Origin: Selaginella moellendorffii
Taxonomy: Eukaryota > Plantae > Lycopodiophyta
Assembly (NCBI RefSeq): GCF_000143415.4
Contig: NW_003314354.1
Location: 100,575 to 164,574, forward strand
Direction: 5' to 3'
Length of the DNA stretch: 64,000 bases
The notes under the pieces: model-generated
What the model was told of the DNA's origin: nothing
Seen by the model: only the letters and a program-made list of their open reading frames with translations
The model's database searches: none
Shown here: positions 3,053 to 48,460 of the stretch, one piece after another
Numbering within the stretch: the first letter of the stretch is position 1
Layout of the letters: every line of letters starts with the position of its first letter
Translations under genes and position numbers: made by a program

Positions 3053-6000
3053 TGTCACGAATGTGACTTCAGGTATCGAAAGTTACCTATTGACTAGTCC
3101 TTTTAGATATTCTTTCCTTATTGCCACGATGGTAGGAGGTTGGTATTGCTGGACCCATTATCAGTCTCCGCCTAAGCTAGTTGAGAAACTGGTCCTCGCG
3201 TGTGCACTTGACTAGATGAGCATAAGGAAGGAATTCCTAAGTGTCTATTTAGTCAAGCATAATTGACCTGGTTAGAGAAACTCATTCATTGACTTGCATT
3301 TGCTAGTGTTGGGAACCCCCATGATATTAAGCTTGGTCCCTCAATATTCGCTAGATGATAGTTTACCGTGTCTGCCAAACACCCTTGCTATCATGCCCTT
3401 TGTGTTAGTCTCATTTCGGTCTCAAATGCTATTTATGGAAAAGTGTCCAGATTTGCTCGTTTGGCATATCTACGGAATGTAGAGATTGGCCTGAACACAA
3501 TGGTGTTCGTTCCGTGTCCAAATTCACAATCTAGGGACATTCCATATTTAGTAAGTTTCAAGCTTGTCCCAGAGACTAACTCCTAATACTAAAGGAGGCT
3601 TGGGGTGAAATCCCAAAGCATGTGTTCCTCAAGAGAAGGGGAGGGGGGGGGGGGGGGGGTTCCATTCCATGCTAGCTGGTGGAGTACCCATATCCTCACG
3701 TTAGGCCACTGGTATGCCGAAATAGCACTAAATTCCGTTTGGCTCTGTTTTGCATGTTAGTTTTGGCATTAAGTTACTTTGGGCTCCTGTCCCTTCGCTC
3801 CTTGGGCTATATGCTTGGGAGTTGCTCCGTGGTTCGGTTCCATCACTCCTTGGCTCCATGCTTGGGTCTTACAAATGGTAAGTTGTGGGATGGATAGTGG
3901 TGAAACACTAAACCATTTTGTCTAGGCTCGCTATTGGAAGACTTGGGTTGCAATGCTCAATTCTTCAAGGCATGCTCAGAGCTAGTGGCTAAATGTTTTA
4001 GTGAACTTATTGCAGTTGAGTTGGATTCAAGTGGTTATTTAGTTTGTGCTTGTCTATGAACTTTTATCTCACACCTGGGGTATCACATTCATGTTGGACA
4101 AGAATATAACTTGATGACAAGAGTTAGTGTTTGGGTTTTGTGAATGCAAGTTGAGGAGTGATTGTTAGTTGCTTTGCGACTAGTGATTACTTGTAAACTC
4201 CATCAAAGGATTGTTGACACTTGCTTTGCTCAGTGATGATTTAGCAATGATGGGCTTGCTTTACTTGGTGGTGTTGCGGAGGATTGTGTCGTGGCTTGCG
4301 TGGGTTTTCTATGTTAGCATATCGACTCTACCTCTATCGATATCATTTGGTTACATTTAGTTCATAGTGTTGGATTTCATTGAGTCTTGGATGTGGTGAA
4401 TCACTCCTTGATGACATATTATCTGAAACTGAGTATTGTTAAAGGATTAGTCTCGGATACTGACTAAAGTATCTTCGACTTTGGTTAGCTTGGTCGCTAA
4501 AAAGTTTTGGGTGGTGAATCACTCTTGCTTTCTTTTAGTTTTGTTATGGTGTTGATGGCATTGAAGTGATGCTTTGTCATTAACATTATTGATGTTAAGA
4601 TTCAAGTGAGATGAGATGTTACTCCTTAGGATTGACATTGAGTTTCATTAGTCTTGATGAAGATAGTGTTGATGATTTAGTTATGGCTTTGTGTTATCGG
4701 CATTCTTGCATTTGCTAATTAACAACTGTGTTGATGTTCAAATGAACTGAGTGACAAGTTGAGTTAGTTGTATTCTAGATAAGATTGCTTAGTAAGGGTT
4801 GAACTTCGGCTTTTATTTGAAAAGTGATTTAATCATGGACTATACTAACTTTATGAGAGGAAGAATTAGTGTTCGATATTAAACTATTTGAGTCTTTATT
4901 GGATTCGAGTTCGGGATATATTGCTTATTAATGATTCTTCTTGTGCTTGTTATGAAGTGAGTTACGTCTTGCTATAAATGGATTCATGGAGGTTCATTTA
5001 GTAATCACTTGTTGGGCATAGCTTTATTGTGCTTAGCTTTTGGATTGATGTAGAAATGTTCTTCATTAGCTTTGGCATTATGAAGTTTGGCTTATGGATG
5101 TGTTGATGAAGATATTGTGGGTTGCATCACAATTTCTTCTTTAGCATTGAAGTTAGCTTCTATGAGATTTGTGATCATTATTAGGCAAGACTTGATTATA
5201 AGTTTCTTCAAGCTTTTGGTTCTTTGAGTTTTGTGCTCATTGTTCCATTTGTTTGAAGTTGTTGGGGAAGGCATTTTGGCTCATTAGCTTCGATGTTGAA
5301 GTTAGCTTTTGCATCTAGCCATCATTGGTGATGATTGACTATCATCTAGGATAATTAATTATCCTTATCAAAAAGTTTTGCTTGATTATTGTTGGTATAG
5401 AATGATTTGTCATTCTTCAGGATGGTGGATTCCTTTTTAGCCGATGATTCTGCATCTCTTTATTGATGGGATGATTGATGATCTTTCATGATGGTTAGTT
5501 GATCTTTTTGATGGCTTATGGCTTTTCGTAATACCACATATTCTTTGTGGTTTGTTCTGAATTAGTCTCTTGGGTTTGAGATATCAATAGGATGTTACTG
5601 ACATTTGCTTAAGCAACTTTGGTTCCTTGGTATTGTTGACCGGGATCTATTTAGATTGACTTGTGTGATGGTTGGCATGACTAAGTGTTTGTTGGTCTTA
5701 CCACATTTATTATGTTTTGTTGATTGTTGCTCGAGTTAGTCTTGATAGATTAGGATGTTATTTCCTTTGGGTGATACATTCGCGAGCATTGTGCTTGTCG
5801 GTTAAGGATACTTTGTGTTCTTTGAGTTATCTTTCGTAAATTGTTTAGCATATTGTCTACAATCTTCGGTAGTTAAGTTTTCTCATTGAGTTTACTTGAT
5901 GATATAATTGCTATTAAATTTTATTAGATGGTGAATCCTTTGTTTTCCAAAGATTGTGATCTTGGTGGTTCCTATACTGTAATACTAGTTTATTGGATGA

Positions 6001-7794
6001 TAACTTACTTGGAATACTTTTGTGTTCTAATCTAAGATATATTCACTGATAATTAAATCTCTATGATATCATTGTTTATGACTTTGATATAGTCCATTTA
6101 TTGATCTTTGAGTTTGGGCCAGTATAGGCAGACTGGCTTCGACACTTCGTGTGCATGGTGAAATCTTTAGTCATGGGGTAGCTACTGTCGATTGGTCACA
6201 TAACCCGCCTCTCTGTCAATGTTCTTTATTCTGTTGAAAGGGCGTGACCGTGTAAACAACTCTAACTACATGTTTACAGTAGTCTATCTAAACCTTACTG
6301 ATGGGTTTAGTTTCTTTGCTTAGGAGGGTTAGGACCTCTGGCTTCTCTCTCTATGTCCCTGTGGGCAGAGCGTATCACACTTTTGTAGTTGGGTGACACC
6401 CAGAGCAGCAAGGGTGTTTGACTCTGTTAGTCATTTCCTTGTCGGTGACAGCCGGAACGTGTCTGAGCTAGTAGCGCATCCGCGTTAGACAAAGAGGTTG
6501 CCTCCTAACTCATTTAAGTTGGTGCATTTATCACATAGTGTGAGTACCGTGAACTTTTTCTAGAGTTGTTTCCTTGGCAGTATTCTAGACTCGAGTATGC
6601 ATTGACGAGGACGTCGATCTTCCCTAAGGGGGGGAGAGTGTCGCGAATGTGACTTCGGGTATCGAAAGTTACCTGTCGACTAGTCCTTTTGGATTTTCTT
6701 TCCTTACTGCCACGATAGCAGGAGGTCGGTATTGCTGGACCTGTTATCAGTCTCCGCCTAAGCTAGTTGAGAAACTGGTCCTCGCGTGTGCACTTGACCA
6801 GATGAGCATAAGGAAGGAATTCCTAAGTGTCTATTTAGTCAAGCATAATTGACCTGGTTAGAGAAACTCATTCATTGACTTGCATTTGCTAGTGTTGGGA
6901 ACCCCCATGATATTAAGCTTGGTCCCTCAATATTCGCTAGATGATAGTTTACCGTGTCTGCCAAACACCCTTGCTATCATGCCCTTTGTGTTAGTCTCAT
7001 TTCGGTCTCAAATGCTATTTATGGAAAGTGTCCAGATTTGCTCATTTGGCATATCTACGAAATGTAGAGATTGGCCTGAACACAATGGTGTTTGTTCCGT
7101 GTCCAAATTCATAATCTAGGGACATTCCATATTTAATAAGTTTCAAGCTTGTCCCAGAGACTAACTCCTAATACTAAAGGAGGCTTGGGGTGAAATCCCA
7201 AAGCATGTGTTCCTCAAGGGAAGGGGGGGGGGGGGGGGCTATGGGGGGTTCCAAATGTATAGTAGGGATAGTGGGTAGGTCGGGCATGGCCGACCAACCT
7301 GAGGCATAGTCTAGCTCCTGCTTGCGTGCCTGTCCTTGTTCTGCGTCCGGCTTGGGTTTAAGCCCAAGTTCCATTCCATGCTAGCTGGTGGAGTACCCAT
7401 ATCCTCACGTTAGGCCACCGGTATGCCGAAATAGCGCCAGACTCCGTTTGGCTCCGTTTTGCATGCTAGTCCTGGCATTAGGATGCTGGTTGCTCCAAGA
7501 CTGTTCCAAGTTGCTCCGGGCTCCTGTCCCTTCACTCCTTGGGCTGTATGCTCGGGAGTTGCTCTGTGGTTCGGTTCCATCACTCTTTGGCTCCATGCTT
7601 GGGAGTTTAGCACCGTTCCTTCATTCAGTGGCCCAAGGCCCTGAACCTCGGGTTCCACACCACTGTCCTTTGGACACATGGCATGTGACATGTGGCATCT
7701 GTCATGTGGCACAAAGAGGGTTTAGGTTCCGCTTCATGGTGTTATCCTATGGTAAATCACCATAAGATAAAGGGTAAAAACCACGTGCGTTACA
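3053..7794 (+). mobile_element. Non-autonomous LTR element, family C (internally deleted copy)
   Basis: TG...CA ends with 5-bp TSD CTCCA (3048-3052, 7795-7799). 3' LTR 6639-7794 is preceded by PPT AAGGGGGGGAGAG. 5' LTR from 3053 is truncated by deletions. Interior is homologous to the reverse complement of parts of 51897-56170. No long ORF. Confidence 0.92.
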
Positions 7795-9605
7795 CTCCAA
7801 TAGTCTTTGTGTTGCAATGGTTGACCGGCTTATAAAGAGTATGCCAATCTCTTTGAATTTGACTTATCATCTGGGGCTAAAATTGCCATACATCATCTAA
7901 TTCCCACCAAAGGTGCTTGTCTAATCAAGGTTCCTGTTCATCATTAGTCACCCAAAGAGATCAAGATTTTACATGCAAACGTAAAAAAAATGTTGGAAAA
8001 AAGGTGTTATTTGAAAGTTGTGGAGTCCTTGGGTATGTGAAGCTCATTTTGTGATGAAGTTTAATGGGAGTATTTGCTTTTGCATCAACTATTGTCCATT
8101 AAACGAAGTAATGATTCTAGATGTGTACCCTCTTCCTCACACTACTGATCTCTTAGATCGTCTGAAGAGAAGTGTTCACCAAGTTAGATCTTATTTCTGG
8201 ATATTAGCAAGTATTGATGGCCGAAGAAGATATTCTTAAGATTGCTTTTTGTACACCATTTGATTTGTATGAGTTTTTGGTGATGCCATTTGGTTTAAAC
8301 AATGCTTTAATGGCTTTTTAGCTGATAATGGATAAGGTTCTTTATTAATGTCATTTGGTTTGAACAATGCTTTAGCAACTTTCTAATAGATGATGAATGA
8401 GGTTCTTTGTAATATGCCAAAGGTGACTGCTAACTTCATTGATAATGTCTTGATTCACTTAGAGGGGATGTAGAAGGAATATATCCATAATGTTCGTAAA
8501 GTGTTGGATCGGCTATGAGAAGTTGGTCTAAAGCTGAAGTGGTTGAAGCACGTGTTTGGGTCTAATGATACCACTTATCTTGGGTACCGTATTTCTTGTG
8601 AGGCTTTATAAGTTGATCTTGAAAAATTTATGGCTATTCTAAAGTTCCTTACTCTAAACTGTGTGAATGATGTACAATGCTTCCTAGGCAAGGTATAGTA
8701 TCTTGGTCATTTTTTTGATCATTTTTCTGATCACACTGCATTATTATGAGCATTGCTGAAGTCATCAGCATCATCTTTCATTTGGTCTACAGACTATGAG
8801 TGAGCATTCATGGATCTCAAAGAGCTATTGATGACTTCTCGGTTTTGGCATGTCCTGACTACACTTGACCTTTCATTTTGTGTGTGGATGCTTTTAATAT
8901 TTGTTTTAGAGGTGTGTTGATGCAAGAAAGCTCGAGTGTGCTTGGTTAGTGCCATCCCATTGCATATATAAGTTGTATATTACAACTAACGGAGGCAAAT
9001 TACTCTATAATAGAGGAGAGTTTAGCAACAATCTGGGGTTTCAGAAAACTTTATGTATATCTACATAGTTCTTGAATGTTACTGAAAGGTGATCATGCTG
9101 ACGTTACTTCGTTATTAAAGCAGAAGAACTTGGTTGGTTGTATTGCTTGGTGGGATTTGAAGCTTTAGATATATGATTTTGATGTTGTTTATTGTTTATG
9201 AGTTTTATGGCTAATGTTGGTGCCCTTTCTCGATCTCCTCTTCCTTATTTACTCTCTTCTCATATTTCTGACGAGCTTATTATTCCAGCATTTATGAATT
9301 TTTTATATAAGGATTTTATGCTATTGGTGGTTGCTATATTTAATGTTAAGTGTCCACAAGGTGTAGAACAAGATTTACCTTCTCTTGATGAGGTTTATGA
9401 GGCTCAAAAGATTGAGCAATAGATTCAAAGGGTTTGTGATGGTTTGAGAATCCTGCATTACTTATTGATGATTTACCATTTTAGCATTTATATTCTCAAT
9501 ATTGTCTTGAGAATAGTCTTCTTTATTTTGGGGATGGATCTTGATGATTATTTACGGCTAGTAGTGCTTTCAATTTTTATTCTGTGGATTCTCTATTCTA
9601 GGAGG

Positions 9606-9629
9606 AAGCTCTATTTCGTTAAAGTGGGA
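9606..9629 (+). repeat. Left TIR
   Basis: Exact inverted match to 21833-21856. Confidence 0.95.
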
Positions 9630-10294
9630 TTTATTCAGTAAAATGGGACTAGGTACAAATTTTTAAGTATTTGAAAATGACGTGAAATTATATGTTTTTT
9701 GTCCAGGGGCTAGACATATCTGGGGCATGGTGACTAGCGCGGTGACTTTGTGTCCAGACTGAGTCCATCTGGTTGTATAATAAATCTCATTGTCAAGGTG
9801 AACAAGCCGAATCTGAAGCTAAAGAAGAGCGATGGCATGCGCGCACACACTATTTGTTTGTTCATTGAGCGTGTGGTGAGCTTTCCAAGATGAACGTCAT
9901 TCCTATTAGCCAGACATATAACTTAATGGTGAGAACATTTAGATATTATTCAATGTTATCTTTTTCTAACGAATCTAATTGTGAAGGTGTAGCAAGAGGC
10001 ATTGCTAGTCTGGAGAAGTCATTTAACTCATTTGACCCTTAGTGTATTTTCATGAAACTAAATAACATTCATATTATTAAGGAATTTCTCTAGTACCTTT
10101 TTTTTACGACATAGAGGCTTGCATTTCTTTCAAAGGTGATTTAGTAAAAGGCCTGAGGGCACATGCCATTCTATTTCTCAGACCGGTATTAAGATATACT
10201 AGTGCAAAGGGCTACATGCCATCACGCCTCCTCTGATTCAGATTCGGATTGTTCACCTTGAAATAAAATACATTAGAAACTTAGTAAAGGAATA

Positions 10295-13200
10295 TTAATG
10301 AATCTCACCTTGACCCCGGGTTATGAATGCTCTTGCTGCATCTCTTGCATGGTCTGGCAAGGTGATGGTGGCACTTTGCTTCCGCATCCAACCATGCACA
10401 ACATTATCCACCGATATGCTCATGCTGGGATCCCTTGGATTCAGCACCCATCTCTTTTCTAGGCAATCCTTCGTATATCCGGAACTTGGCTTGAACCACT
10501 CCACAGTTACATTGAAGGAGTTAGTTTCCGCGTCCTCCTCTGCATCAGTGATGCAGCGCCCCACCCATATCATTTGTTTTTTATTACTGGGTCTGACAAG
10601 CATGACCATTCCTTTGCAGACCTGTACTGGATTGAATGCTGAATCCGGCTTCTTGTTCCTCGGCCCACAATAGTGATCCTCAACATCGTTATCTGTCACT
10701 GCATTTCCAGAGGACATTGTTCCGCTACTATCTGGTGCTCTGGGTTCTGGCCAAAAGGACTCTTCCAATTCTTCATATACAACCGGCCCATTTTGGATAG
10801 CAGATATAATCTTCTCCCAGTATTCGAGCAAAGGCTTGCACCTCTTAAAATAGGATTCTCCACCAAACACCAACCCCCTCTTCCAGAAGGCAATATGTTG
10901 TCTAATCCCGGCCACTATACTTTCCTGGTCTTTGAGTCCATCCGGGTGCATCGGCCGTGGGGAACCCTGAGGAATCATAGGTTCCCCAGTTATGGGATCT
11001 CTCTTGAAGAGTTCAATGCCGTCCACTGGCAGCCACACTGTGTCCCATTCTCTCATCTTGTACCTCATCACTGGAGCACCATCACGCATGCTGAAATGAA
11101 ACTGAAGAGGCTTGGAGTGGCCAATCAGCGTTTCGGATCCGTCCCTGATGTAGCCTCTTACAAACCCCTTAAAGTCTGGAACCTCTGTCACAAGTGCAGC
11201 TTCAATAGTGCCTTTGATGCAATTTTGGAATTCATCGTAGAGTTGTGGGAGGGTGAGGACATTGGATCGCCGGAGGGACTCTGCCAGGTGACTGAACATG
11301 GCATCGACGTCTTCATGAGTGTGCCCAAACATGAGAAAGCCAAGTGTAACCGTTTCAAATATGCCTTTGGCAACAAGCATCGCCAAGTACGCGAAGACGT
11401 ACATGTTTTTGTTCTCACTGCCAGCATTCTCTGTTTGGAGCAGAAGATGGGGTGGAAGGCCACATCGGCCGCAAGAACTTCCTTGAGATTCTGCTTCGTT
11501 TGGATGAGGCTGTGCATTCACCGGGCGACCAGCCTCGTCGGAATGGCATGAGGCCTCACGTGATAACCCTACAATTTGACGGCCAACATATTCACTGGGA
11601 TGGTATGGGGCCCCACGCGATACTGCAAGCCTTTGCTCCTCCTCCAGCTGAACCCTGTATGGGGTTCGATCGACAAGGGCCTTATGCAAGGGTTGGCCGT
11701 TCAGCTTAGTCTGCGCACTTTGCAGAGACCTTAAGTGTTTTGCTAGGGACGCAATCATCATGTTTGCACCCCCGCCACCCCATAGAGGTACAAAGAAGTT
11801 CCCATAGTTCTGGGCACCATGCCCATGAGCGATTATGCCAAACAGAGACACAGGCAGCTGCATGGATGAAGAGATTGCCTTGAGGGCAGGATTGAGTCGA
11901 GGTAAGCACGTCTTTTTCTGGTCCATTTTGTCGTGGATGATGCAGAGGTAAGAGTCAGGTCTCTCCATGGAGAGAATCCTGTTATGATAATATGCAGTCC
12001 TGCAGCTTCTCTGCTCGATGTTGTGGTCGAGCCGCCTTCTAACCAACGTCTCTCGCTCTTGAGCGCTGCAAGAATTCTTCGACAAAGCCATTTTGATAGC
12101 AGTGCACTCGTCACACTTTGAAAAGCTGGAGTACTTTCCTATACTCACATCCCTGAACCTGTTGCTCCACAATCTACTAAATCTAGATTGGCTCAGCTTC
12201 CTGTAGCCATTACTCTGGAGTTCCCGATTCACATCTTCCAATATGGCCCCCTTGGTATACATGGAAGGGAGAACTCGTTGGGTGTCTCGTGTTCCATCTT
12301 CCAAGAGGTGGGTTTTATGTGGTTGCTGCTCGCTACATGTCTCGACAAACCTCTTGAAGATTGCCTCTCCATATACAACATGACCCCTGGTTTTGTGCGT
12401 ACCGTCGTTCCCATGGACTGCCTGTTGAACCCTTTGTTCCTCGAACTCAGTTTTGATTCTGTAGAATGTGGTTCGAGGGACTCCATAAATGATTCTCCAT
12501 GCCTTCATGCAGACCAAACCCCTCTGGAAGACCATGCCCCCCACCTGATGTTCTGAAGCATCAACAGATGACCGTAATGCCTCATACACAAAATTGCGAG
12601 CTGCCTTCCAGGACAATGTCTTGTATCTTGCTCTCTCCTCTTCAATAGCATCCCAATCAGCATGTTGACAGCACCTCCTCTTGCAACAAGCAACTGTCGA
12701 GACCATTCGAACCTCCATCGCCATTTTCTGCCTTTTCGGTTCGTTGCTCAGATCCCTTTGGCTGCGCTGTAGGAAGGTGTACTTTCTTTTCCCATGAAGA
12801 GATGTTCTGTCATCAGTTGTAGTGGTGTTTGATTGTGAATCCTTCACATTCTCAAACACTAAATGCCTCAATTTCCACCGCACAATGCTTCCAATAGTTA
12901 GACTGTTTTCTTCTGTGTCAACAACCTCTAAAATTGCAACTCCAATATCATCCCAGCCCAATTCTTGATTAGCAACCGCATCTCTTGGATCGACAACTGT
13001 GGCTAAGCCCTCAGCTACCACCTCCCCCTCGGGGTTGTTTAGAAACACCTTTGCCTGAATCCATGTAGCACGGTTCTTAAGATCCACGGAGGGAACATGC
13101 GTCGCACTTGCGCTGTCCCCAACATCTGCTTTCTTTTGCAGATTTTTCAAGGCAACAACAACATTTACCCCGACGACCATCTCTCCTCGTTCAATAGCGA

Positions 13201-13363
13201 CCACATTCCCATCGAAGACAGTCTCTACTGATACAGCAGCATTGCCTTCCCCAAGCCTTTGACAGTGTATAACAAAGTTCCGATCCATAGACACAAGGGT
13301 CCCTTTTGCAACTCTCTTCCCACCATTCAAAATGTAAACCTTTTCCCCAACCCTGAAAGCCAT
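10295..13363 (-). CDS. Sola-like DDD transposase, 1022 aa
   Basis: Motifs IIHDKMDQ, GGANMM, LQTENAGSENKN (usually LQxDN..ENKN) and FLMFGHTHEDVDAMFS; cysteine clusters CCKRRCC and FSKCDEC; two N-terminal VAxG...LG repeats resembling Tnp1/EnSpm-associated domains; lies inside a TIR element with a 4-bp TSD. Confidence 0.85.
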   Translation of the reverse strand: MAFRVGEKVYILNGGKRVAKGTLVSMDRNFVIHCQRLGEGNAAVSVETVFDGNVVAIERGEMVVGVNVVVALKNLQKKADVGDSASATHVPSVDLKNRATWIQAKVFLNNPEGEVVAEGLATVVDPRDAVANQELGWDDIGVAILEVVDTEENSLTIGSIVRWKLRHLVFENVKDSQSNTTTTDDRTSLHGKRKYTFLQRSQRDLSNEPKRQKMAMEVRMVSTVACCKRRCCQHADWDAIEEERARYKTLSWKAARNFVYEALRSSVDASEHQVGGMVFQRGLVCMKAWRIIYGVPRTTFYRIKTEFEEQRVQQAVHGNDGTHKTRGHVVYGEAIFKRFVETCSEQQPHKTHLLEDGTRDTQRVLPSMYTKGAILEDVNRELQSNGYRKLSQSRFSRLWSNRFRDVSIGKYSSFSKCDECTAIKMALSKNSCSAQERETLVRRRLDHNIEQRSCRTAYYHNRILSMERPDSYLCIIHDKMDQKKTCLPRLNPALKAISSSMQLPVSLFGIIAHGHGAQNYGNFFVPLWGGGGANMMIASLAKHLRSLQSAQTKLNGQPLHKALVDRTPYRVQLEEEQRLAVSRGAPYHPSEYVGRQIVGLSREASCHSDEAGRPVNAQPHPNEAESQGSSCGRCGLPPHLLLQTENAGSENKNMYVFAYLAMLVAKGIFETVTLGFLMFGHTHEDVDAMFSHLAESLRRSNVLTLPQLYDEFQNCIKGTIEAALVTEVPDFKGFVRGYIRDGSETLIGHSKPLQFHFSMRDGAPVMRYKMREWDTVWLPVDGIELFKRDPITGEPMIPQGSPRPMHPDGLKDQESIVAGIRQHIAFWKRGLVFGGESYFKRCKPLLEYWEKIISAIQNGPVVYEELEESFWPEPRAPDSSGTMSSGNAVTDNDVEDHYCGPRNKKPDSAFNPVQVCKGMVMLVRPSNKKQMIWVGRCITDAEEDAETNSFNVTVEWFKPSSGYTKDCLEKRWVLNPRDPSMSISVDNVVHGWMRKQSATITLPDHARDAARAFITRGQGEIH

Positions 13364-13715
13364 TCTGAAAGTGCAGAAAAGAAGTTAAGACCATACAAAA
13401 AATGATTGGAGAATGGCCTAAATCATAACATACCAAATAGCATGAGGCCACATGCCATTATTCAAACATGCTATTGACACCCACGTGAAATTTCGCATTC
13501 ACAAAATTGGCATGAGGCCTCATGCCATCTTGATATACACACAGCTGCAGGCAAGTAAAAACATACATGACAATACGCTAGCCATGAAATTGCAAGGGCC
13601 CAAGATGGCATGTGGCCTCATGCCATTTCTAAATGTGGTCCTAAACCATTCCATGGTGAACATACCAGGAAGCACAAGTGCCGAATATCAAGAGGAAGCG
13701 GTAGCCACACCAAAG

Positions 13716-13850
13716 ACAGTGCCGCTCGCAACACCGCAACTACTCGTAGCGCCGCTCGCAACACCGCAACTGCTCGTAGCGCCGCTCGCACAAACTGCCA
13801 CTCGCATAAACTGCCGCTCGCAATGGCGCTCGCAATGCCGCAACCGCTTG
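13716..13850. repeat. CG-rich ~30-bp tandem repeat upstream of the transposase
   Basis: GCCGCTCGCAACACCGCAACTRCTCGTAGC x2 plus partial units. Confidence 0.8.
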
Positions 13851-14532
13851 TAGACGCATAAACCACAGCTCACAACGCCGCTTACACAAGTAGCGCTCAC
13901 TGCGCTCAGCGGAACCAAGAACACGGCGCACAAAAATGATAGACCTAGGAATGAGTTCGAGAATTCAAAAATAACACACGCTTAAACGTCACATCAAATC
14001 CTCTGACAAACCAGATCTTATGATTCCTCTGACAAATTTCAAACTGAGTAGCTTCTAGACTTTGCTGTCGGAGGTTGAACTTTGTCACATCATGTCCTTG
14101 CCTCAATCCAGCTGTGCCATGTCAGTGATTCGAACTTTGCCATGCCATGTCAGCGATCCGCGCCAAGATTATTCGCCGTGTAAAGGAATAATTATGCTGT
14201 GTGTGTACGTCCATTTATGGCAATATAAGGCCACATGCCATTCAAAGAATAATGCTAGTCGAGCATCTTTTGGTGCATTTTTGGGTTCAAAATTGCATGA
14301 GCCCACACGCTATAAAGTTTACCTGTACCAAAAATAGAAACAGCTTTATTTATTTGGGAATTTAAGTGGTTGAGGCATTTTTAAACTTACAAACACATGC
14401 CCTACTTACATTCCTTTGGTTGCTAGCTTTCGTTTGTCCCCTTCACTAGCCTGAGATACATCTGCTCGGCATCTACCTCTTACAGCATTTGCCCAGAAAG
14501 GGCATCTTTCTTCACGCAGCATTTGCCACATG

Positions 14533-14558
14533 TTTAGGGTTTAGGGTTTAGGGTTTAG
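14533..14558. repeat. Interstitial plant telomeric repeat (TTTAGGG)3 plus a partial unit; telo-box cluster
   Basis: TTTAGGGTTTAGGGTTTAGGGTTTAG. Confidence 0.9.
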
Positions 14559-15454
14559 CAATTCAGTAGCTTGATAAACATGCAAATACAGAACTTGATG
14601 CAAAATCCTTGGATATATCACAAATCCCCTAGGACCATAAACACATTTCAATAGAGAGGGTCCTTTCATTTCATAACTCCTTACGTAGATCTTGGTGAAA
14701 CCAGAGTTAGTGAAGTTGGTTTCTTGTGATCCTGCATCTGATTGTGATGTCCCTTTGCAGTGTCGATGGAAAGGTCAATGCACACCAAACTGTAGAATCT
14801 TGGAGCAAAATAACGGTCGGATCTATGGCAAATGCCCCTGAAACATTGTAAGGCTCGTGTGATCTCATGTGGTGTCCGATCGAGATGCTTCTTTGCAGGG
14901 TCATCAAGAAGGACATTGTATACCATTCTATAAAATTTAGTTGCGATCTAACGGTTGGATCTCCAGGAAACTCAAAACAATCTCACGCGTGTCAGAATAT
15001 TCTAGGAATATACTCCTATGTGCTCCTGAAAATGGCATGCGGCCCCACGCCATTCAAGAGATAACGCCAGATGACGCCGAGCATTTTTTGGTGCATTTTT
15101 TGGGATCAAAATTGCATGAGCCCACATGCTTGAACGTCACATCAAATCCTCTGACAATTTATTTAGCTGAACATCTGGCATTTTTGGAAATACAAGATGC
15201 TTTGGAATATCCAATCATGCATGGTATAAATATAGCGAGGGTATTAAATGATATCCCAATCATGATCTTTCTTTTGGATTTCGCGTGCATGCAGTCCGAG
15301 GAATGATGACGTTGCGGATTTCTTTTGGATTTCATGCATGCGCGCGCCGATCCAGAAATTAATGGTGGTGCCCAAGTCCGAGAAATGATGACATGGCGGG
15401 ATTACCAACCGTCGTGACATTTCGCGCGTGTGAGGTTAGGTTTTGCATTTTGCT

Positions 15455-15600
15455 TCGTACTCGCGCTCGCACACTCGCGCTCGCATCGCGCTCCCACTCG
15501 CGCTCCCACTTCTCTATAGGTTTCTCGTGTGCATCGGCGTCCACTCGCGCTTGCATCACACTCGCGCTCGCATCGCGCTCGTGTGCATCGGCGTCCACTT
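15455..15600. repeat. CG-rich direct repeats upstream of the cargo gene
   Basis: CACACTCGCGCTCGCATCGCGCTC x2 and CTCGTGTGCATCGGCGTCCACT x2. Confidence 0.75.
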
Positions 15601-15800
15601 CAAGACACACCCAGTTTGTAACTTCGCCGCCAACTCCGCCGCCCACTCCGCCACCCACACGCAGCCCACTTGGCGTCCCGGGAGATTTCAGCGCCACTCT
15701 CCAACTGTAAGTGGCAGAGTAGCCTTGCTGCTATGATCCGCTGCACACACAGTGCACATTCGCCAGCGAGTCCGGTTGTCACGCCTCCATTCGGCTTCAA

Positions 15801-18800
15801 ATGGTAAGTCTTTTAGGCCAAGTAGAAAATGGCATGAGGCCACATGCCATTCAGTAGCAACATTGGCATGCACCGATTGGGCTCTCGAGTGTAGTCCGGT
15901 TACAGATGGCGTGTAGCCTCACGCCATCTTAGGATGCAGCCTCAAGACATCTGATGCAGTGGTGAATGGCGTGTGGCCTCACGTTATTTCCAGCTACTAG
16001 CTTTTCATCTGTCAGCTCTAATTGTTGTGCATTTTTGAACAGGCGAGGAATTGCGTTCTTCTTCCAGCCACTGTCAATGTGGATGCAGAGAAGGGGGAGG
16101 AGCTCACCAGTTGGACTTTCGGGATGGAAGGCGAGGATCTGAGGCTGTACAACACAGATGGTGGGAGAAAAGAATGCATGGGGATCCTCATCCAAGTGAC
16201 AGACACTCCATGCAGTTCCATGCAAGAATATGGACTGGCACTTGTGGTAGAGACAGCGTCTGCCTTCAAGATCCACCTTGCACATCCTAGCGGCTTCCCG
16301 GAGGGGGGCAGCGGCTATGAGGAATTCCTAGAGGGAGCTAGGGAGAGGTTGTCCAGGAGGCCCACAATTTCAAAGACGCTGCGGGTCTATGAAGATCACA
16401 TGGAATCCACGGACCTCACCTACGGCGATGTTCAAAAACTATATTCCAACATTGAGCCGTTGAGAGTGACTCCAGTTCGCGAAGCAAAGGGGAAGGGGGT
16501 CGATCTGGAAACTACCTCGAAGCAGAAAAGGGTGGTCAAGCTCAAGCCGACATCCGACTCTCCTGCTCCAAAAAAGAAGCTACTTAGTGATGCCATTGCC
16601 TCGGGTTCGAACACTACACCCACCAAAAAGAAGAGCCGCAAAGAGCAGAAAGAGCAAGAAGAGGCAGCAAAAATTGTCGCAGATAATAGTACTTGTTACT
16701 ATTCCAACAAAGTATATACAATCGACGTGAGCCGTATCGACATCCAAAGCAAATACAACCACAGGCTAGTATCTGATGAGTGGGTGGAGAAATTGAAGCA
16801 GAAGATGCTGGCAAGTCCAGTAACACCCGACATCGCAGACGTGATCCCCTACTACCAAAAAATGAAGGGCGAGATGAGGTTTCCAGACTTGATCAATAGG
16901 AAGGTGTTGGACGATCAGAACATCCGGTTCTATGCCGTCTCCGGGCAGCATTCTAGCTTGGCGATGCAAGAGATAGTTGTGGATATTATGGTGGGCGAGG
17001 AGGTGAAGAAAGTCTTCAAGACAAGAGTTGTCCGCCTGATAAAAGGCAACTCGCCCCTCCGATCTATCATATACATCTCCCACGCGCAGAATGTCAAGCA
17101 AGAAACGTGCTACAAATCGGGTCTGCACGAGACATTGGCACGAACACGGAAGCTCTGGGTTCAACTGAAGAAGCCACAAAAACCAGGACAAGGACGTGCA
17201 CTAGCAACTAGCGCCTGGCAGGTAAGCCTCGTTGTATGTGGCATAGCATGTGGCCTCACGCCATTTCCATTGCAGGAATTCTCGAGTCTTCTCTCGAAAA
17301 CACTGGGGGTCAATGACACACTCAGCATCCATAACATTCTACTCGCGACAAAAGTTGTTTTTGACAAATGGGTAGATGTGCTGAGGAGGTACCATGACGG
17401 GGAGTTGCCAAACTCAATGGGTGTGGAGGACGGCCGGAAGCCCAATGATTTGAAGCTCAACGCCTTGCGTTTCTCGCGGTCTCTAGACGACGACGACCTT
17501 CTGACAGTGGCTAATGCTCTTCTACGTGGTGAGGTTGTCTTCAACAAGACCAAAATGACTCCCGGCCATATTGTGACATACGAGGACTTGTGCACGACTC
17601 TGAGAGCTCGTGCGCTATTGAAGGATTGGATCTTCGAGCAAGTGGCCATGGAGAGGGTGAGCATCGACACCACGCAAGAGATGATGGAAGCGCTGGAGTT
17701 GTCAAATGAAGACATCGACGAGTACGTGAAGGGGGCCCCCAAGTTCATCGATCTGCTGCGGGATGCCACGAAAAGTAAAGCTGAGAAGTTGGATCAGTAT
17801 CCAAATTTCATTAAGATTGATGTCGACCGCCGACTTCAGAAACAGCTCGACCCCGCAGCAGAGGCCTATCGAGAACCTTACCGGGTATACTTGAATTCAG
17901 ATGAGGATCAAAGGTGGAGGAGCATCGTTTCCCGCGGAGATGAGCAGGTCAAGAACATCTTTTGTGTGATGGACTTCACAAACGAGGAGATCACTCATGC
18001 AGACGAAGTCAGCTCCATCATTGACTTAATGGTGGGACTTGCGGAGGTGGAATCTTCAGTCCACTATATGATCTACGACTCCAAATCCTATCACAAGTTC
18101 TGGAAGGCCTTGAACGAGGTGAAGGCTCGGTTGAAAGGCAAGGAGATGCGGGAGATCCATGGGATAATGGCTAAGAAGAAGATACCGACGAATGTCCGCA
18201 TCTTCACACTCGCCCTTGTTATTGGTCCTGCAGCAGAGTGGGACTGGAGTGACTTCCCAGCTTCGTTCGACAAGGCCAATCGAATTGATCTTAGGGAGGT
18301 CAATTTACCCGTGCCTGAGGAACTGAAGACGGCTATGGAGCTTTCGAATCCAAAGAAAGCTCCAGGTGCAGCATGGGAAATGCTCAGCTGGGTCTTCAAC
18401 GCAATAGCGGGTGGGTCACCTACTTCCGACTCCAAGGGCAAATGTGTTGTCGAGTACAACTGCGGCGGACTATTCTTTCGAGCCGCACTACTCAAGGGTG
18501 TCCCATGTGTTGCGGTGACAAACTCCATTGAAGAGGTGACTTCAATGGAGCATATAATTACAGTTGCCAAAGAAAAACAGTATCTTCTCTGCGAACCTGG
18601 TGAGTACACACTTTAAGTTTAAATGTTATCTCACAAGCTCTGTATGCAGGAGCGTGGCCACCCCCAGATGCTGAAACGGCGTTAACAGCTACTGTTGAAG
18701 ATACCCATGTTGGGCCGAGCTCACAACCTGCACAAGGTAAGGTCACGTGAGGCCTCACGCCATTTTGATTATAGATCGTTGTGAATATTTAGACACGAGG

Positions 18801-21414
18801 ACTGAAAAGCGCACTGGTGGCGCATCGAAGAAGGACAAACAGACAAGCAATAGGAAAAAAGGAGGTACAAATTATATTTGCAATGGCGTGTGGTCTCATG
18901 CCATTCCTTGCAGAAGAAACTTCTTCAAAGGCAAAACAGGCAAGCACCAGCCAAGCTCAAACTGACAGTGGTCATAAAAAGCGAAAGCACGTTGGACAGT
19001 CGTCGAGATAAGAGGCGTTTGATTCGAAAAGGAAGAAGGGCAACGAAAAGATGATAGGTAATGCCTCGCGGTTATGGCATGTGTGCTCATGCCATTCATT
19101 GCAGATCAAGGGCTGAGTGAAAGCAGGCAGTCACCACCTCATGACTCAGATTCCTATGGCGGACTCCCCTTCCCCAATCTCAATGGAGAGGTACAATGGA
19201 TGAGGGAAGCTTTTCAAGGCAGGGCCACGTTTTTCTCATCTCGTCGTCTTCGAAGGGTGCAAGAATGTGCAGAAACCATGTTAAGACAGTCGGGTGAGGA
19301 TACGGTCCTAGGTCACGCACTAAAACAGGCTATGGATGTCTTGTATTTTGAGATGGAGACTCGGCCAGATGATTTTCCCAAGATGGTCCTGGAAGAACAA
19401 GCCATCCAGCCTGAGCAACCTATGGAAGAAATGCAGGAGGAGGATGAGGAGCCAGAGAAAGATAATGAGCAGGAAGAGCAGAAGGACGAAGAGGAGGACA
19501 AAGAAGAGGAGGACGAAGAAGAGGAGGACGAAGAGGACTTGGATGGTCCTCACAATGGTGACGATCACAATAACGACGACGACGATGATGACGACGATGG
19601 CCAGCCTGAGGTGGCCAAAGAGCGGCGGAGGAAGGTCATACAAGACAAACCATCAGGTAAATAATAATACATCCATTCCTAACCTTTTACCATTTCTAAC
19701 ATTGTCCATGTAGGTCGCAGAGCAAATGGTAAGTAGAGATTATTCAGTTGAATTTACAAACTCTAGCCTTTAGTGTCGAGGAAGGATAGTGCCAAGCAAG
19801 GGTCGAAACGTATGTCCAATCCTTCAGAATCAGCAGTGCGCTCAAGTGATATCGGTCCTAGTTCCTCAATAGCAGTTGATGGTAAATACAGTATAGTCGA
19901 TTCAATGTGCTAATGAGTTTGTTTTTAGTAGCACGGGAGGATACCATCTTAATCGAAGGGAGATATTTGGACATGCATATGGATCCGCCAGTGGACTCTA
20001 CTTGGCTGCAAGAGTCATCAGAGCTGGTGGAGGCTACTATCCATATCAACGCCAAGCAAGCTGACCACGCTCCACTTGATGCTGCCCATACCACTGAGTC
20101 AATCTTGTCCACGTATCCAACTGACGGTGACCAGGCGCCATTGGACCCACATGAGGCCGCCGAGCCGGTCGTATCCTCATTTCCAACGGACTCAACGTGT
20201 GCCCAATCGTCTGACTACGCGCCGTTGGAACCTCCCTACACCGCCCCTGCTGCCTGTTCGGTCATGTCCACTTTGCCAACGGAGGCACCAGCTGAAATGG
20301 CGTGTGATCACACGCCATCGGAACCACCCCATGCCACTGTTGAGCCAGTTGTACCAGAGTCTACAGCTGAAATGGCATGTGCCCACACGCCATCGGATGC
20401 GATTGACCCCACATTGCAGAGGAGAGTATTTCCGCCCTTCACGTTTCCTCGACCAAAACCCTCTCAACGACCATCGGGAGCAACATTCGCTAATATTGTA
20501 GATGGTAAAATTGACTTGTACCATTTTTTATGCTGACGCATTTCATTTCAGAGTCACGGCGAAGGTACTGTATCATTTTTGATCTGAACGGTGTCCTTTT
20601 CTCCCATGAGCGTGGCTCGTCCTCGAATGTCATTGCACCCTCCAAAGCCTGCGGTCGCAAGTTGGTCAAAAGAGACAGATTCACATTAATCACACGGGAG
20701 AAACTGCGGGATCTAATAATGACCATGCGACACTTAAAACAGAGGGCCGGGTTCAATTTGCAATTGGGAGTTTGGACATCCATGATGCGCCACAATGCAT
20801 TAACGTTGCTACAGATGATGCACGATCAGACGCGAGTAATATTACCATTTGACTTTCTCCTAACGCAGGAGGATTGCTTGACTATGGTCCATGTGAGGGG
20901 TAGCAAGCCCATCTTCGTCAAGCCAGAGGCTGTAGTGATGAACCGGACTGCTAGCTCAAGTGAAATCCTCATCATCGATGACTCGCCGATTAAAACTGCA
21001 GCGAACACGCACACATATGCAGTGCACCCCATCTCTTGCAGTATGGAAACTAGGGAGAAGAAACCGTATGTTCTGGGGGACCTTGCAAAACGGCTTGGAG
21101 CGATGGTGATAGAGAACCGGCCAGTCCAGGAGGTGGCTGCAGAAATCAACCAAATGGCAGATGGAACGGTATATCAGAAGCCATTTGATCGGACAGACAC
21201 TAGTCATCATTTATGGCATGTATATTGTCTAGCCAAGCACTATCCGCATCTCCATAATCTGCTCAACCGGATGGGTTCTTCGACCACTGAACATGAGCGT
21301 GGACGTATTAGAGAAGAGATGGCATTACTATTGGGTTTAAATCCTGATAGTGTGGAGAGTGATGAAATTCCAAGATTATTGTATAGGCGTTGGAGGCAAA
21401 AAATAACAGTCTGA
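15801..21414 (+). CDS. Transposon cargo gene, 11 predicted exons (~1639 aa): ParB/DGQHR-like domain, degenerate N4/N6-MTase-like fold, acidic/low-complexity linker, FCP1/NIF-like HAD phosphatase; one in-frame TAA at 19009-19011
   Basis: Predicted exons: 15801-15803, 16043-17221, 17276-18599, 18650-18736, 18793-18864, 18914-19057, 19105-19656, 19714-19728, 19774-19881, 19932-20504, 20552-21414. All introns are GT-AG and the exons total 4920 nt in one frame. Motifs: FYAVSGQHS, VVEYNCGG..RAALLKG, IIFDLNGVLF, GVWTS, LIIDDSP.K. Confidence 0.72.
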
Positions 21415-21832
21415 GATGGCATGTATTTATTTAAAAATGTAACTTATTATGGCATGGGGTTCCATGCCATTGTATTAATATTAAAAGACAATTCTTTGAG
21501 AGGATTTGCATTATACTAGAAGTGTTACAGCATGTTATTGGAAGTTTACGAAGTTGTTTTATTAATAATGGGAAAGTAAAGATTGAATGGGGACTTGGGC
21601 TCCACCTAGACTCGGAGCAACTGAGCCAATATTAAAAGGATGGAAAGAAATTGGACGACGATGACAAGGAGAAGAGAGAGGTGAAGCAGTGGCAGGGGGA
21701 GGAGAAGTGATTGAGTAGACATTTCCTTGTTTAAAATAAAATGGCATGTGCCTCAATGCAGTTGAATTTTGTTATATTTATATACTATATAAAGGTTTGG
21801 AAACCTTATTTTACAAGTGGGATAATGACAAT

Positions 21833-21856
21833 TCCCACTTTAACGAAATAGAGCTT
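21833..21856 (-). repeat. Right TIR
   Basis: TCCCACTTTAACGAAATAGAGCTT followed by TSD GAGG. Confidence 0.95.
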
Positions 21857-22692
21857 GAGGGCATATAGGATATCGTTATGTCACTAAGAAGCTGTATAGG
21901 TCTTTTTATTAGTCAAAAATGCGACATGATGTTTTTTAGTATATATGCAGTTGCATTTGGTGCCAAGCTCGTAATACTCCCCCTTATGTTACAGAAAGAC
22001 GGTTGGAGTCAATTGTAATTTCCCGTTTGTTTCAATTGGTGGCATTTGATTTTATGGGATCTTTTCTACAATCAATTGTTGGCAATAAGTATGTTATTAT
22101 TACTTTTGACTACTTAACTCATTGGGTGGAAGTTAGTGCTATTATTAGTGCCTTTGCAACTGTTGTTAGATACTTCCTCCTCAATTAAGTGGTGTTTTAA
22201 CATTCCTATTCAGAGTGGATTCTTTCAGATAATGGTCCCACATTTATGGCTAAGATATTTCACATTTGGACATCTTAATTGAGAATATGCCACACTTTCA
22301 TGAGTGCTTATCATCCACAGTTTGACGGTTTAGTGGAATGGCTCGTTTAGACCTTCAAAGGGATGATCGTGAAGTATGTGAACTTTCAACATTCAGATTG
22401 GGATGGTTATTTGCTGTCTCTTTAGTATGCATATATCACAGGGGTGAAGAGTTCTATTAGTGCTTCACTATATAAATTTCTGTATAGTCATAATCCATTA
22501 TTACCAATGGGGTTGGATTTACTTTCGTGATTGCCATGAGTTGCTACTGCTAGGTTGTGGGATTAGTATTTGACAAGCTTTCTTCCACTTATCTGAACAA
22601 ATTTTGCCGAAAATCTAAATTATGTACAAGTGGCACAACAATAGCGCTACAACTCCCATCATTGTCCACTTGCAAAGTACAAAGTGGATAAC

Positions 22693-32640: not shown

Positions 32641-34611
32641 CTTTCTTCTATATTTCCATCTTGTTCCTCTATTCTTTCTTCCGATCCTTTTAATGGTCTT
32701 TGTGTTGCAGCAATTGACTGGCTCATGAATGAGTATTTCAATCTTTTTAAATTTAACATATTGTCTAGGGCCAAGATTGCAACATGTCATCCTATTTTAA
32801 TTGGGGATGCTCGTCCAATCAAGGCTCTTATTTGTTGTCAATCACAAAAAAAGATCAAGATTTATGCTCAAACATTAAAAAGATGTTAGAAAAGAGTGTT
32901 ATTTGAAAGTTATAAAATCTTTAGGTATGTGAACTTCATCTTATGATGAAGCCTAATGAGAATATTCATTTCTATATTGACTATTGTCTGTTAAACAAAG
33001 TGACGATCCCAAACAGGACTTATCTTGGGTATATATTTCTCATGAAGGCTTACAAATTGATTTTAACAAACTTATGGCTATTTTAAAGTTTGGTACTTGG
33101 AAGTATATAAATGATATACAATGCTTTTTAGGCAAGATGTAGTATTTTAGTTGTTTTGTTGATCATTTTTCTAATCGCACTACACCATTGTGAGTGTTGT
33201 TGAAGTCATCAACATCATCTTTCATTTGGTCTATGGACTATGAGCAAGTGTTTATGGATCTCAAAGAGTTATTAATGACTCCTCCAGTTTTGGCATATTT
33301 TGACTACACTTGACTTTTCATTTTGTTTGTAGATGTTTTCAATATCAGTCCTGGAGGTGTGTTGATGCAAAAGAGCCTAAGTGTGCTTAGTCAGCACCTT
33401 TCCATTGCATATATCAACTGTATATTATAATTAGTGGAAGTGAACTACTTCACAATAGAGGAGTGTTTAGTAGCAATTTGGGGTTTCAAGAAACTTCATG
33501 TATAGTTATATGGTTTTCGGATATTACTAAAAGGTGATTATACTACAATTACTTCATTATTGAAGCAGAAGAACTTGATTGGTCGTTCTGCTCGGTGGGA
33601 TTTGAAACTTCAGATATATAATTTTGATGTTGTTCATCATCTAGGGAGTTTTATGGTTGATGCTGATGCCTTTTCTTGAGATTCTCTTCCTTCTTCACTC
33701 TCTTATCATATTTCTAATGAGTTTGTTATTTCAACATCTGTGGATTTTTTGTATAAGGATTCCATACTATTAGTGATTGTTATATTTAATGTTTAGTGTC
33801 TACAAGGTGTAGAGCAAGATTTACCTTCTCTTGATGAGGTTCATGAGGCTCAAAAGATTAAGCTATAGATTCGAAGGCTTTGTGATGGTTTGAGAATCTT
33901 ATATCACTTATTGATGACTTGCTATTTTGGCATTTACATTTTTAATATTGCCTTGAAAATCATTTTCTTTATTTTGTGGGGATGGATCCTAATGATTATT
34001 TATGGTTGGTGGTGCCTTTGATCTTTATTTCACGCTTTCTTCACACCTACTATGATTATCTTGTTCTAGGCGAGCATATTGTCATATGACTGAAAAGTTA
34101 CGTAAGTTTTTCTATTAGCTGGAGATGTGACATGATGTTATCCGGTATGTGTGTAGTTGCATTTAGTGCTAAGTTTGTAATACTCCCTTTTGTGCTGCGA
34201 AAGGATGGTTGGAGTCAATTGTAATTTCTCATTCATTTGAGTTGGTAGTATTTCATTTGATAGGGCCTTTTCTACGATCAATTGTTAGCAATGAGTATGT
34301 CATTATTGCTTCTGACTATTTGACTTATTAGGTGGAAGTCAGTGCTATTACTAATACATCTGCAACTACTGTTGGATACTTCCTCAATTAAATGGTATTC
34401 TAACATTCTGATTCAGAATGGATTCTTTCAGATAATAGTCTCACATTTATGGCTGAGGCATTTCACATTTGGACATATCAATTAAGAATATGCCACATTT
34501 TCATGAGTGATTATCATCCATAGTTAGATGGTTTAGTGGAATAGCTCGTTCAGACTTTCAAAGGGATGATCATGAAGTATATAAACTTTCAGTATTTGGA
34601 TTGGGATGGTT

Positions 34612-38067: not shown

Positions 38068-38354
38068 CTTCACTTCTATCCACCTATTCTTCTCGCTTGG
38101 ATTATCTTCCATTCCATTCCCTTGGGTATAATTTGTAGATACAATCTTCGATTTCCTGAACTATAATATTTGTATCTCATCGATGTTTCGATTACTGCGG
38201 AAGAATGGGAAATTTCTTGTAGCTCCCAAAAGACGTGGCTAGCAACATCTCTATCCGTACCGCACGGCAAGGCCACTACTACGTGCCGTACAGTGATTTC
38301 ATACGGATTTAGGGCGCCTTTGCCAATCTTCGTTGTTCTTGGCGGCAAAAGGAA

Positions 38355-48179: not shown

Positions 48180-48460
48180 TGCAAACCCTAGAGAATTTTC
48201 GCATTCAAAAACACAAACAAGTTGCTGGATTCTCTCCAACTACGTTACATTTGCTTGATTATACTACTTGTAATTGTTTGAAGGCTAAATCCCTGACTTT
48301 CAACACGTTTGCAGGCTTCAACCAGATATAAAAATCAACAAAAAAAAAAAAAAAGAGCAAGTGGACAGCCTTCACTTTGCTTTGTCCTAGTATATAATCG
48401 AGAGGATGCATTGGTGGTATCAACAGAACAACTTTCCTCTTTCCTTTTCGAGCTTCGCCA

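Follow-up and report, generated by a model that had tools for sequence, protein, structure and literature searches.

What reads a 22-bp palindrome that recurs across some 12 kb of a plant genome, and to what end? The palindrome lies in a 64,000-nucleotide stretch of the lycophyte Selaginella moellendorffii (positions 100,575 to 164,574 of contig NW_003314354.1, assembly GCF_000143415.4; hereafter, the window), where an earlier note had picked it out from the letters of the DNA. We found its copies to be confined to a complete cut-and-paste DNA transposon of 12,251 bp (9606-21856), which is inserted in a decayed gypsy pol region and carries a DUF7869 transposase (gene 1) and a second gene for a predicted ParB-like fusion protein (gene 2). 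The palindromes are a real, non-random feature of this element and are quite probably read by a protein that the element itself encodes, be it the product of gene 2 or the transposase. That they are family-specific docking sites for a dimer of the ParB-like gene-2 protein, serving self-recognition or regulation, is a reading based on structural models to which we give about an even chance.

The palindrome and its transposon

In a pattern search of the whole window, the palindrome was matched 18 times at ≤3 mismatches and never in 100 dinucleotide shuffles, an enrichment over shuffled controls that bears out the earlier note. At ≤5 mismatches there were 22 copies, every one within 9832-21762 and none in the remaining ~52 kb; with a further copy at 14220 (6 mismatches), the count proposed earlier, about 23 in 12 kb, was reproduced. 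Flank similarity joins just 4 of the 23 copies (9832 with 10201, and 14292 with 15111), the other 19 having unrelated flanks, as expected from the earlier argument that tandem duplication is insufficient to explain them. Target-site duplications (TSDs) of ≥3 bp surround single copies in 1 of 23 cases, compared with 1.6 expected, which disposes of the alternative that the palindromes are parts of a tiny miniature inverted-repeat transposable element (MITE) with TSDs of its own. With so few shared flanks and no TSDs above chance, the copies constitute neither a tandem array nor a MITE.

Compared with a two-arm site, the motif is more continuous (G at position 10 in 22 of 23 copies and C at position 13 in 20 of 23), its centre (G10, C13) being itself symmetric. 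The perfect dyad symmetry claimed earlier is a property of the consensus, from which individual copies mostly depart. Spacer length is fixed, at 6 (20 copies, compared with ≤2 at other lengths, save for a shifted self-match at 11), compensated off-consensus arm changes were sought in the palindrome copies and none was found, and an A·C mismatch stands at the variable pair in 7 of the 23. Fixed spacing, absent compensation and A·C mismatches together argue for a double-stranded protein site and not a hairpin, so that, of the two interpretations offered earlier (a dimeric protein or a hairpin), a dimeric reader is the one supported by the sequence. The palindrome has no visible similarity to the terminal inverted repeats (TIRs) of the element.

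Copies occur at the left end (3), in an insert of the transposase (2), in the gene-1 first intron (3), in the spacer between the genes (4), in the gene-2 first intron (3), in gene-2 mini-introns (4), in a low-complexity exon (2) and at the right end (2; Table 1). Four of the 23 are coding and 19 non-coding in an element that is 65% coding sequence (P = 3 × 10−6), and seven of the nine in gene 2 are intronic, with introns making up 12% of that gene (P = 1 × 10−5). The spacer copies include two pairs within an 80% identical duplication. The element has other repeats as well: a 62-bp inverted repeat (79%; 9778-9839 and 10215-10275) near the left end, each arm of which ends in half a palindrome, and four telomere-type TTTAGGG units in the spacer (14532-14558).

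Table 1 Features of the palindrome-bearing transposon, in window coordinates
Feature	Position	Strand	Remark
Left 4-bp TSD	9602..9605	+	GAGG
Left TIR	9606..9632	+	begins AAGCTCTATTTCGTTAAA; matches clade pattern AA(N5)ATTTCR(T/G)TAAA
Three subterminal degenerate palindromes, left end	9832..10222	.	9832, 10148, 10201
Gene 1, DUF7869 transposase	10295..13363	-	1022 aa; Pfam E = 5.7 × 10−40
Two coding palindromes, poorly conserved insert of transposase core	11543..11621	.	11543, 11600
Predicted gene-1 first intron, three palindromes	13365..13665	-	13437, 13507, 13605; GT-AG context
Divergent spacer, four palindromes	13666..15800	.	14220, 14292, 15032, 15111
Gene 2	15801..21414	+	predicted 11 exons, 1639 codons
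Predicted gene-2 first intron, three palindromes	15804..16042	+	15829, 15906, 15966
Predicted 54-nt gene-2 intron, one palindrome	17222..17275	+	17243; homologous gene calls stop here
Three predicted 47-56-nt gene-2 introns, one palindrome each	18737..19104	+	18742, 18883, 19074
Two coding palindromes, low-complexity linker of gene 2	20297..20393	.	20297, 20372
Two subterminal palindromes, right end	21449..21762	.	21449, 21741
Right TIR	21830..21856	-	
Right 4-bp TSD	21857..21860	+	GAGG

All palindromes lie between the arms of a 27-bp inverted repeat (9606-9632; 21830-21856), each flanked by GAGG on its outer side. In a second, uninterrupted gypsy copy in the window, the equivalent anchors are exactly 4 bases apart (34070-34073), which confirms the 4-bp TSD, and in public sequencing runs of the same organism the depth was approximately tenfold higher inside the element ends, with loose ends at the boundaries and other contigs diverging past 21856. 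The family majority in these runs is ~99% identical to the window copy; the transposon family is young and multicopy. With TIRs, a TSD and a transposase of RNase H fold, the element has the attributes of a cut-and-paste DDE/DDD transposon. The terminal pattern given in Table 1 closes seven related loci (four of them from one clade, with four different flanks), and the TIR core is conserved in these seven, whose palindromes differ or were not seen.

As for its class, Sola transposons have a 4-bp TSD and a DDD triad, with GRG/GAG termini (Sola2/3) or an AWWT target (Sola1). The element shares the 4-bp TSD and, in the family majority, the DDD-type RNase H core, whereas its termini read AA(N5)ATTTC (window and seven loci) and its TSD is GAGG, not GRG/GAG or AWWT. 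CACTA and Plavaka elements have CACT(A/G) termini and a 2-3-bp TSD; membership there was ruled out by the AA termini and 4-bp TSD, as was membership in GingerRoot (6-bp TSD and 100-150-bp TIR in the available description) by the 4-bp TSD and 27-bp TIR.

The earlier note had also taken the variation at CpG positions of the palindrome arms to fit deamination of 5-methylcytosine, or a reader that accepts both T and 5-methylcytosine. The window copy is indeed deaminated: 29 of its 40 listed differences from the family majority between 13400 and 17300 are C>T or G>A (CG, 13/388; CHG, 8/292; CHH, 8/1212), from which we infer that this copy has been methylated. Most of the CATG/CACG variety has another standing. 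Among the differences listed, one falls inside the 11 palindromes of that interval, and two more were seen elsewhere, which makes three palindrome changes private to the window copy (11604, 14236 and 19079); with so few, most of the variety appears to be fixed in the family and tolerated. The CpG observed/expected ratio is 0.71 in the element, compared with 0.31 and 0.40 in its flanks, for which the youth of the element accounts.

Two genes and two candidate readers

Gene 2 was modelled from GT-AG context, frame continuity and homologue ends, with ten predicted GT-AG introns; nine of these, between 17222 and 20551, are 45-57 nt each, very short for a plant. One sequencing run has a loose end at 18952 that leads into a further palindrome and splice-acceptor unit, which suggests a subfamily with an additional exon-intron module. 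In order, the product is predicted to comprise a ParB/Noc/KorB-like N-domain, a helical domain, a degenerate N6/N4-methylase-like region, an acidic linker and a NIF phosphatase, the last recognized by Pfam at the C-terminus; over the N-terminal half, Pfam gave no match. Twenty of 22 database matches were retained as homologues (P0017 and P0022 were dropped as repeat-rich chance matches), many stopping at the intron-2 position, and the named ones come from Selaginella and Riccia. Further searches added little: NCBIfam gave no match, PDB sequence searches with both alignments returned nothing useful, word-based homologue searches for gene 2 returned one already known protein and no longer forms, and a scan of viral contigs for gene 2 was empty. 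No 2-oxoglutarate oxygenase was found in the element, and no ParA gene was seen.

A fold model was built for the first 670 residues of gene 2. Over the N-domain and DNA-binding domain, it aligned with ParB (Z = 11.2), Noc (Z = 10.3), KorB (8qa9; Z = 8.9, root-mean-square deviation (rmsd) 4.8, 195/208 residues, model residues 44-342) and pNOB8 ParB (193 residues aligned), and its ParB/Srx N-terminal fold with 7bm8 (Z = 10.7, rmsd 2.4, 98 residues) and PadC (Z = 9.7); the front half is predicted to fold as a ParB-type N-domain followed by a helical, helix–turn–helix (HTH) DNA-binding domain. Further along, the Atlas structure of a Selaginella homologue aligned to PF01555 clusters with TM scores of about 0.4-0.6, one row lying above the naming bar, and the model of the methylase-like part is of low confidence. 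The position of the methylase catalytic motif reads DFTN/DLRR/DATT, not DPPY/SPPY, and the region is likely inactive because this motif is absent. For the liverwort homologue P0026, the nearest Atlas feature (language-model) clusters were DUF3723 (0.94), and its Atlas model matches ParB_N+HTH_ParB clusters by structure, a hint from modelling that DUF3723 may be ParB-like; no paper in the collection searched names both DUF3723 and ParB, and Pfam DUF3723 had no match on gene 2 or its homologues.

Gene 1 has one sister copy, 97% identical, and 11 more distant relatives (27-36% identity). The HDKMD, xDN and GHTHED motifs are conserved in the alignment, and the second catalytic position is Glu in the window copy and Asp in the relatives and the family majority (reads at 11429). 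In the transposase model (predicted local distance difference test score (pLDDT) 62), tandem Tudor/KOW barrels, a double HTH resembling that of CENP-B (Z = 6.1), an integrase-type RNase H core at residues 458-718 (Z = 8.3) and, at the C-terminus, a chromo/Tudor barrel are seen; two HTH-like units stand ~45 aa apart. The three predicted Tudor/chromo-type barrels are possible readers of histone marks. Among the literature matches listed, there was no DUF7869 paper and no description of this element.

Palindromes of related loci

We gathered 80 related loci by their transposase and chose 34 mostly intact ones for a dyad count (L012, with 8 stops, included). The palindrome of the window occurs in none of the 80. 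Twelve of the 34 had ≥1 kb of upstream sequence, and 11 of these 12 carry a private dyad in 4-12 copies (shuffles mostly gave 1-3 and at most 4, and window controls 2-4; some counts include one chance match in an open reading frame, and the four-copy loci L002 and L008 lie near the background maximum of 4). The loci with dyads fall into 9 clusters at 85% protein identity, and their dyads, 18-24 bp long and often 22, are similar within a clade and unrelated across clades, are concentrated upstream of the transposase and often form tandem arrays. Private dyads across clusters imply that the design is a clade trait with family-specific spelling. Many related contigs break inside the dyad array, where gene 2 would follow.

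Some loci depart from this pattern. The dyads of L020 also lie in an intron, in coding linkers and downstream; they are of odd length (17-19 bp) and all point the same way, in contrast to the even-length ~22-bp dyads elsewhere. Several kb away from decayed transposases, palindromic tandem repeats also occur (L043:20716-21490, L044:5747-6350, L069:5489-6180 and L076:16432-16980), which were left out of the dyad count. L004:2105-3664 is a fold-back copy in which the 5' element part is repeated inverted.

Weighing the readers

If the gene-2 protein is the reader, each subunit of its dimer would bind one 11-bp half-site, and the palindrome clusters in both first introns and the spacer would place the protein at both promoters. 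Once bound, it might keep the element active against host methylation, like VANC or TnpA, or tune transcription, possibly via the attached phosphatase and dead methylase-like domains; by analogy with VANC, TnpA, VirB and KorB, the purpose would be anti-silencing or autoregulation. New palindromes may arise by short tandem duplication, as seen in relatives, and be retained where coding permits. We favour gene 2 because proteins of the ParB/Noc/KorB fold class are palindrome readers, because the dyad bears no relation to the conserved core of the TIR, because the contigs of most relatives end inside the array, just where gene 2 would follow, and because a ParB-like protein, PAG3, has been described beside inverted-repeat arrays in the study cited below.

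Several observations weigh against this assignment. Gene 2 was found in none of the 80 related loci (hidden Markov model; tblastn, E < 0.05), including L009 and L034, with 10 kb and 5.6 kb of upstream sequence, respectively, and L036, a 7.1-kb element that is closed on either side by matching TIRs, carries palindromes and leaves no space for gene 2; because the left end of L009 is missing, the array of L034 resumes at the contig start and L036 lacks a TSD and has a stop-bearing transposase, these three do not fully exclude a gene-2 partner. A single stop interrupts the window copy of gene 2 at 19009, a position at which the family majority differs, and Foldseek E-values for the gene-2 model were just ≥1.7 × 10−3. 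GxxR is the nucleotide-binding arginine motif of ParB, Noc and KorB, and its position reads SGQHS in gene 2 and most of 13 aligned homologues (one has DGQHT, one SGAHS, and none has Arg there), so that with serine in place of arginine a nucleotide-gated sliding clamp is doubtful. Finally, CG deamination was 3/187 within 200 bp of palindromes and 10/201 beyond (P = 0.09), at best weak protection (of four thresholds tried, 300 bp gave P = 0.025, post hoc), and CpG observed/expected ratios are equal near and far from palindromes; local protection from methylation is suggestive at best.

The same loci lend weight to the transposase as reader, its double HTH binding the palindromes as extended subterminal synapsis sites or for self-activation and gene 2 being cargo or a helper. 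Arrays accompany the transposase in relatives in which gene 2 was not detected (L009, L034 and the TIR-bounded L036 among them), motif similarity tracks the transposase tree, two HTH-like units are predicted, as has been described for TnpA and transposases (TPases), and the AtMu1 TPase, according to the available text, is an activator of its own family. The palindromes, however, lie outside the TIR, mostly kilobases from the ends, whereas the AtMu1 TPase is described there as binding at TIRs; L031, L035 and L036 have a nearly identical HTH1 recognition helix despite their different half-sites; and the TnpA/TPase motifs are 8-10 bp long, the word 'palindrom' being absent from that text. On balance, we regard a transposase reader as possible and somewhat doubtful. 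A host transcription factor or chromatin protein, exploited by the element, would suit the enhancer-like clusters in both first introns and the divergent spacer, but the palindromes of the different families, though similar in length, are unrelated and could not all be read by one host factor, and the 52 kb of surrounding DNA holds no copy at the five-mismatch limit; such a factor is very improbable.

Two further explanations need no DNA-binding reader. That the palindromes act as RNA hairpins, in the splicing of mini-introns or as a source of small RNA, draws on three copies that end 9-11 nt before a 3' splice site, two such introns folding better than shuffled sequences (z = −2.3); yet the other two of the four palindrome mini-introns fold no better than shuffles (z = 0.1 and −0.3), five of the ten gene-2 introns have no palindrome, copies also stand in the spacer and near the ends, an Rfam search gave no match and the mismatches, lack of compensation and fixed loop length described above are unfavourable, making this the least probable explanation that we considered. 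Nearly as remote is the proposal that local duplication or conversion left the palindromes behind as neutral by-products, or a tiny MITE as its footprints. Relatives do commonly have tandem arrays, and two window pairs lie within duplications; against the proposal stand the unrelated flanks of 19 copies, the chance-level TSDs, the conservation of the motif amid diverging flanks and the recurrence of the design in 9 protein clusters.

To our knowledge, few plant transposons read or protect their own sequence (VANDAL, Spm and AtMu1), and they do so via short non-palindromic motifs. By analogy, the element resembles the VANC/TnpA motif systems and the proposed PAG3 system in its working and is a member of neither. 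As with VANC and TnpA, its motif clusters are family-specific and lie in non-coding parts. In the available text on VANC and VANDAL in Arabidopsis (PMC5735166), motifs likewise occupy introns, intergenic and terminal non-coding DNA, are gained by tandem repeats (here seen in relatives) and belong with a second gene in the element; VANC motifs, in contrast, are 8-9 bp and non-palindromic, VANDAL is Mutator-like, and gene 2 has no Pfam domain over its N-terminal half. Spm TnpA and the AtMu1 transposase share with the present case a tandem-HTH domain and motif clusters that diversify with lineage, but their motifs, as far as described, are short, non-palindromic and mainly terminal, compared with an element-wide 22-bp dyad here (bioRxiv 10.64898/2026.08.24.746577).

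The pairing of a ParB-like protein with inverted repeats has already been proposed, for red-algal Plavaka elements, whose accessory gene PAG3 has an N-terminal ParB-like domain and inverted-repeat arrays as its proposed target, self-binding being a proposal there too, and whose cassette includes a PF01555 methylase, PAG2, comparable to the PF01555-like region of gene 2 (Petroll et al., bioRxiv 10.1101/2025.02.11.637652). Judged by that description (the full distribution of PAG3 could include land-plant cases), the present system differs in its land-plant host, in its DUF7869 transposase (4-bp TSD, AA termini; not CACTA-type), in the fusion of ParB, degenerate PF01555-like region and NIF phosphatase in one gene, and in the placement of its sites, which are scattered one by one across introns, exons and both ends and are not confined to tandem arrays beside the gene. 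The predicted N-domain and DNA-binding fold, with palindromic sites on a mobile element, also recalls KorB/OB, VirB/virS, Noc/NBS and ParB/parS, among which, in the available texts, VirB is an anti-silencer (PMC10770331) and KorB a long-range repressor (PMC11790492); unlike these bacterial systems, the present one lacks the GxxR arginine, has a longer site and is set in eukaryotic chromatin, and no ParA gene was seen in it. DUF3723, the nearest feature cluster to P0026, is likewise a eukaryotic mobile-element accessory gene, described as conserved cargo of Starships, which differ in being fungal tyrosine-recombinase elements (bioRxiv 10.1101/2021.12.13.472469).

What is new here is a clade of land-plant DUF7869 transposons that carry long private dyads and of which this family also has a ParB–methylase-like–phosphatase fusion. 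A young and abundant family thus presents a long private dyad and two candidate readers, with at least nine related families having different dyads; this set is a ready swap system for the co-evolution of protein–DNA specificity, makes the red-algal idea testable in a land plant and contains orthogonal 22-bp sites that could serve as targeting tools. Were a ParB-fold reader confirmed, eukaryotic transposons would have reused a bacterial site-and-clamp module. It is even conceivable, if unlikely in our estimation, that the land-plant DUF7869 clade as a whole uses a bacterial-type ParB/parS-like code, in which every family pairs its private ~22-bp palindrome with a ParB-fold protein that co-evolves with it, loads at that site and spreads over the element to prevent silencing, and that Starship DUF3723 genes are of the same class; such a code would be a eukaryotic counterpart of the VirB/KorB anti-silencing clamp.

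Elsewhere in the window, an RWP-RK transcription-factor gene, presumably RKD-like, lies at 38313-40500 (+), with a CDSCQILR..HSNG motif and a RWPHRK motif at 40462, followed by a two-exon cytochrome P450 gene at 48398-49971 (+; Pfam p450). A long terminal repeat (LTR) retroelement at 50759-58031 has 1140-bp LTRs that are 98.9% identical and a related copy at ~3053-7794.

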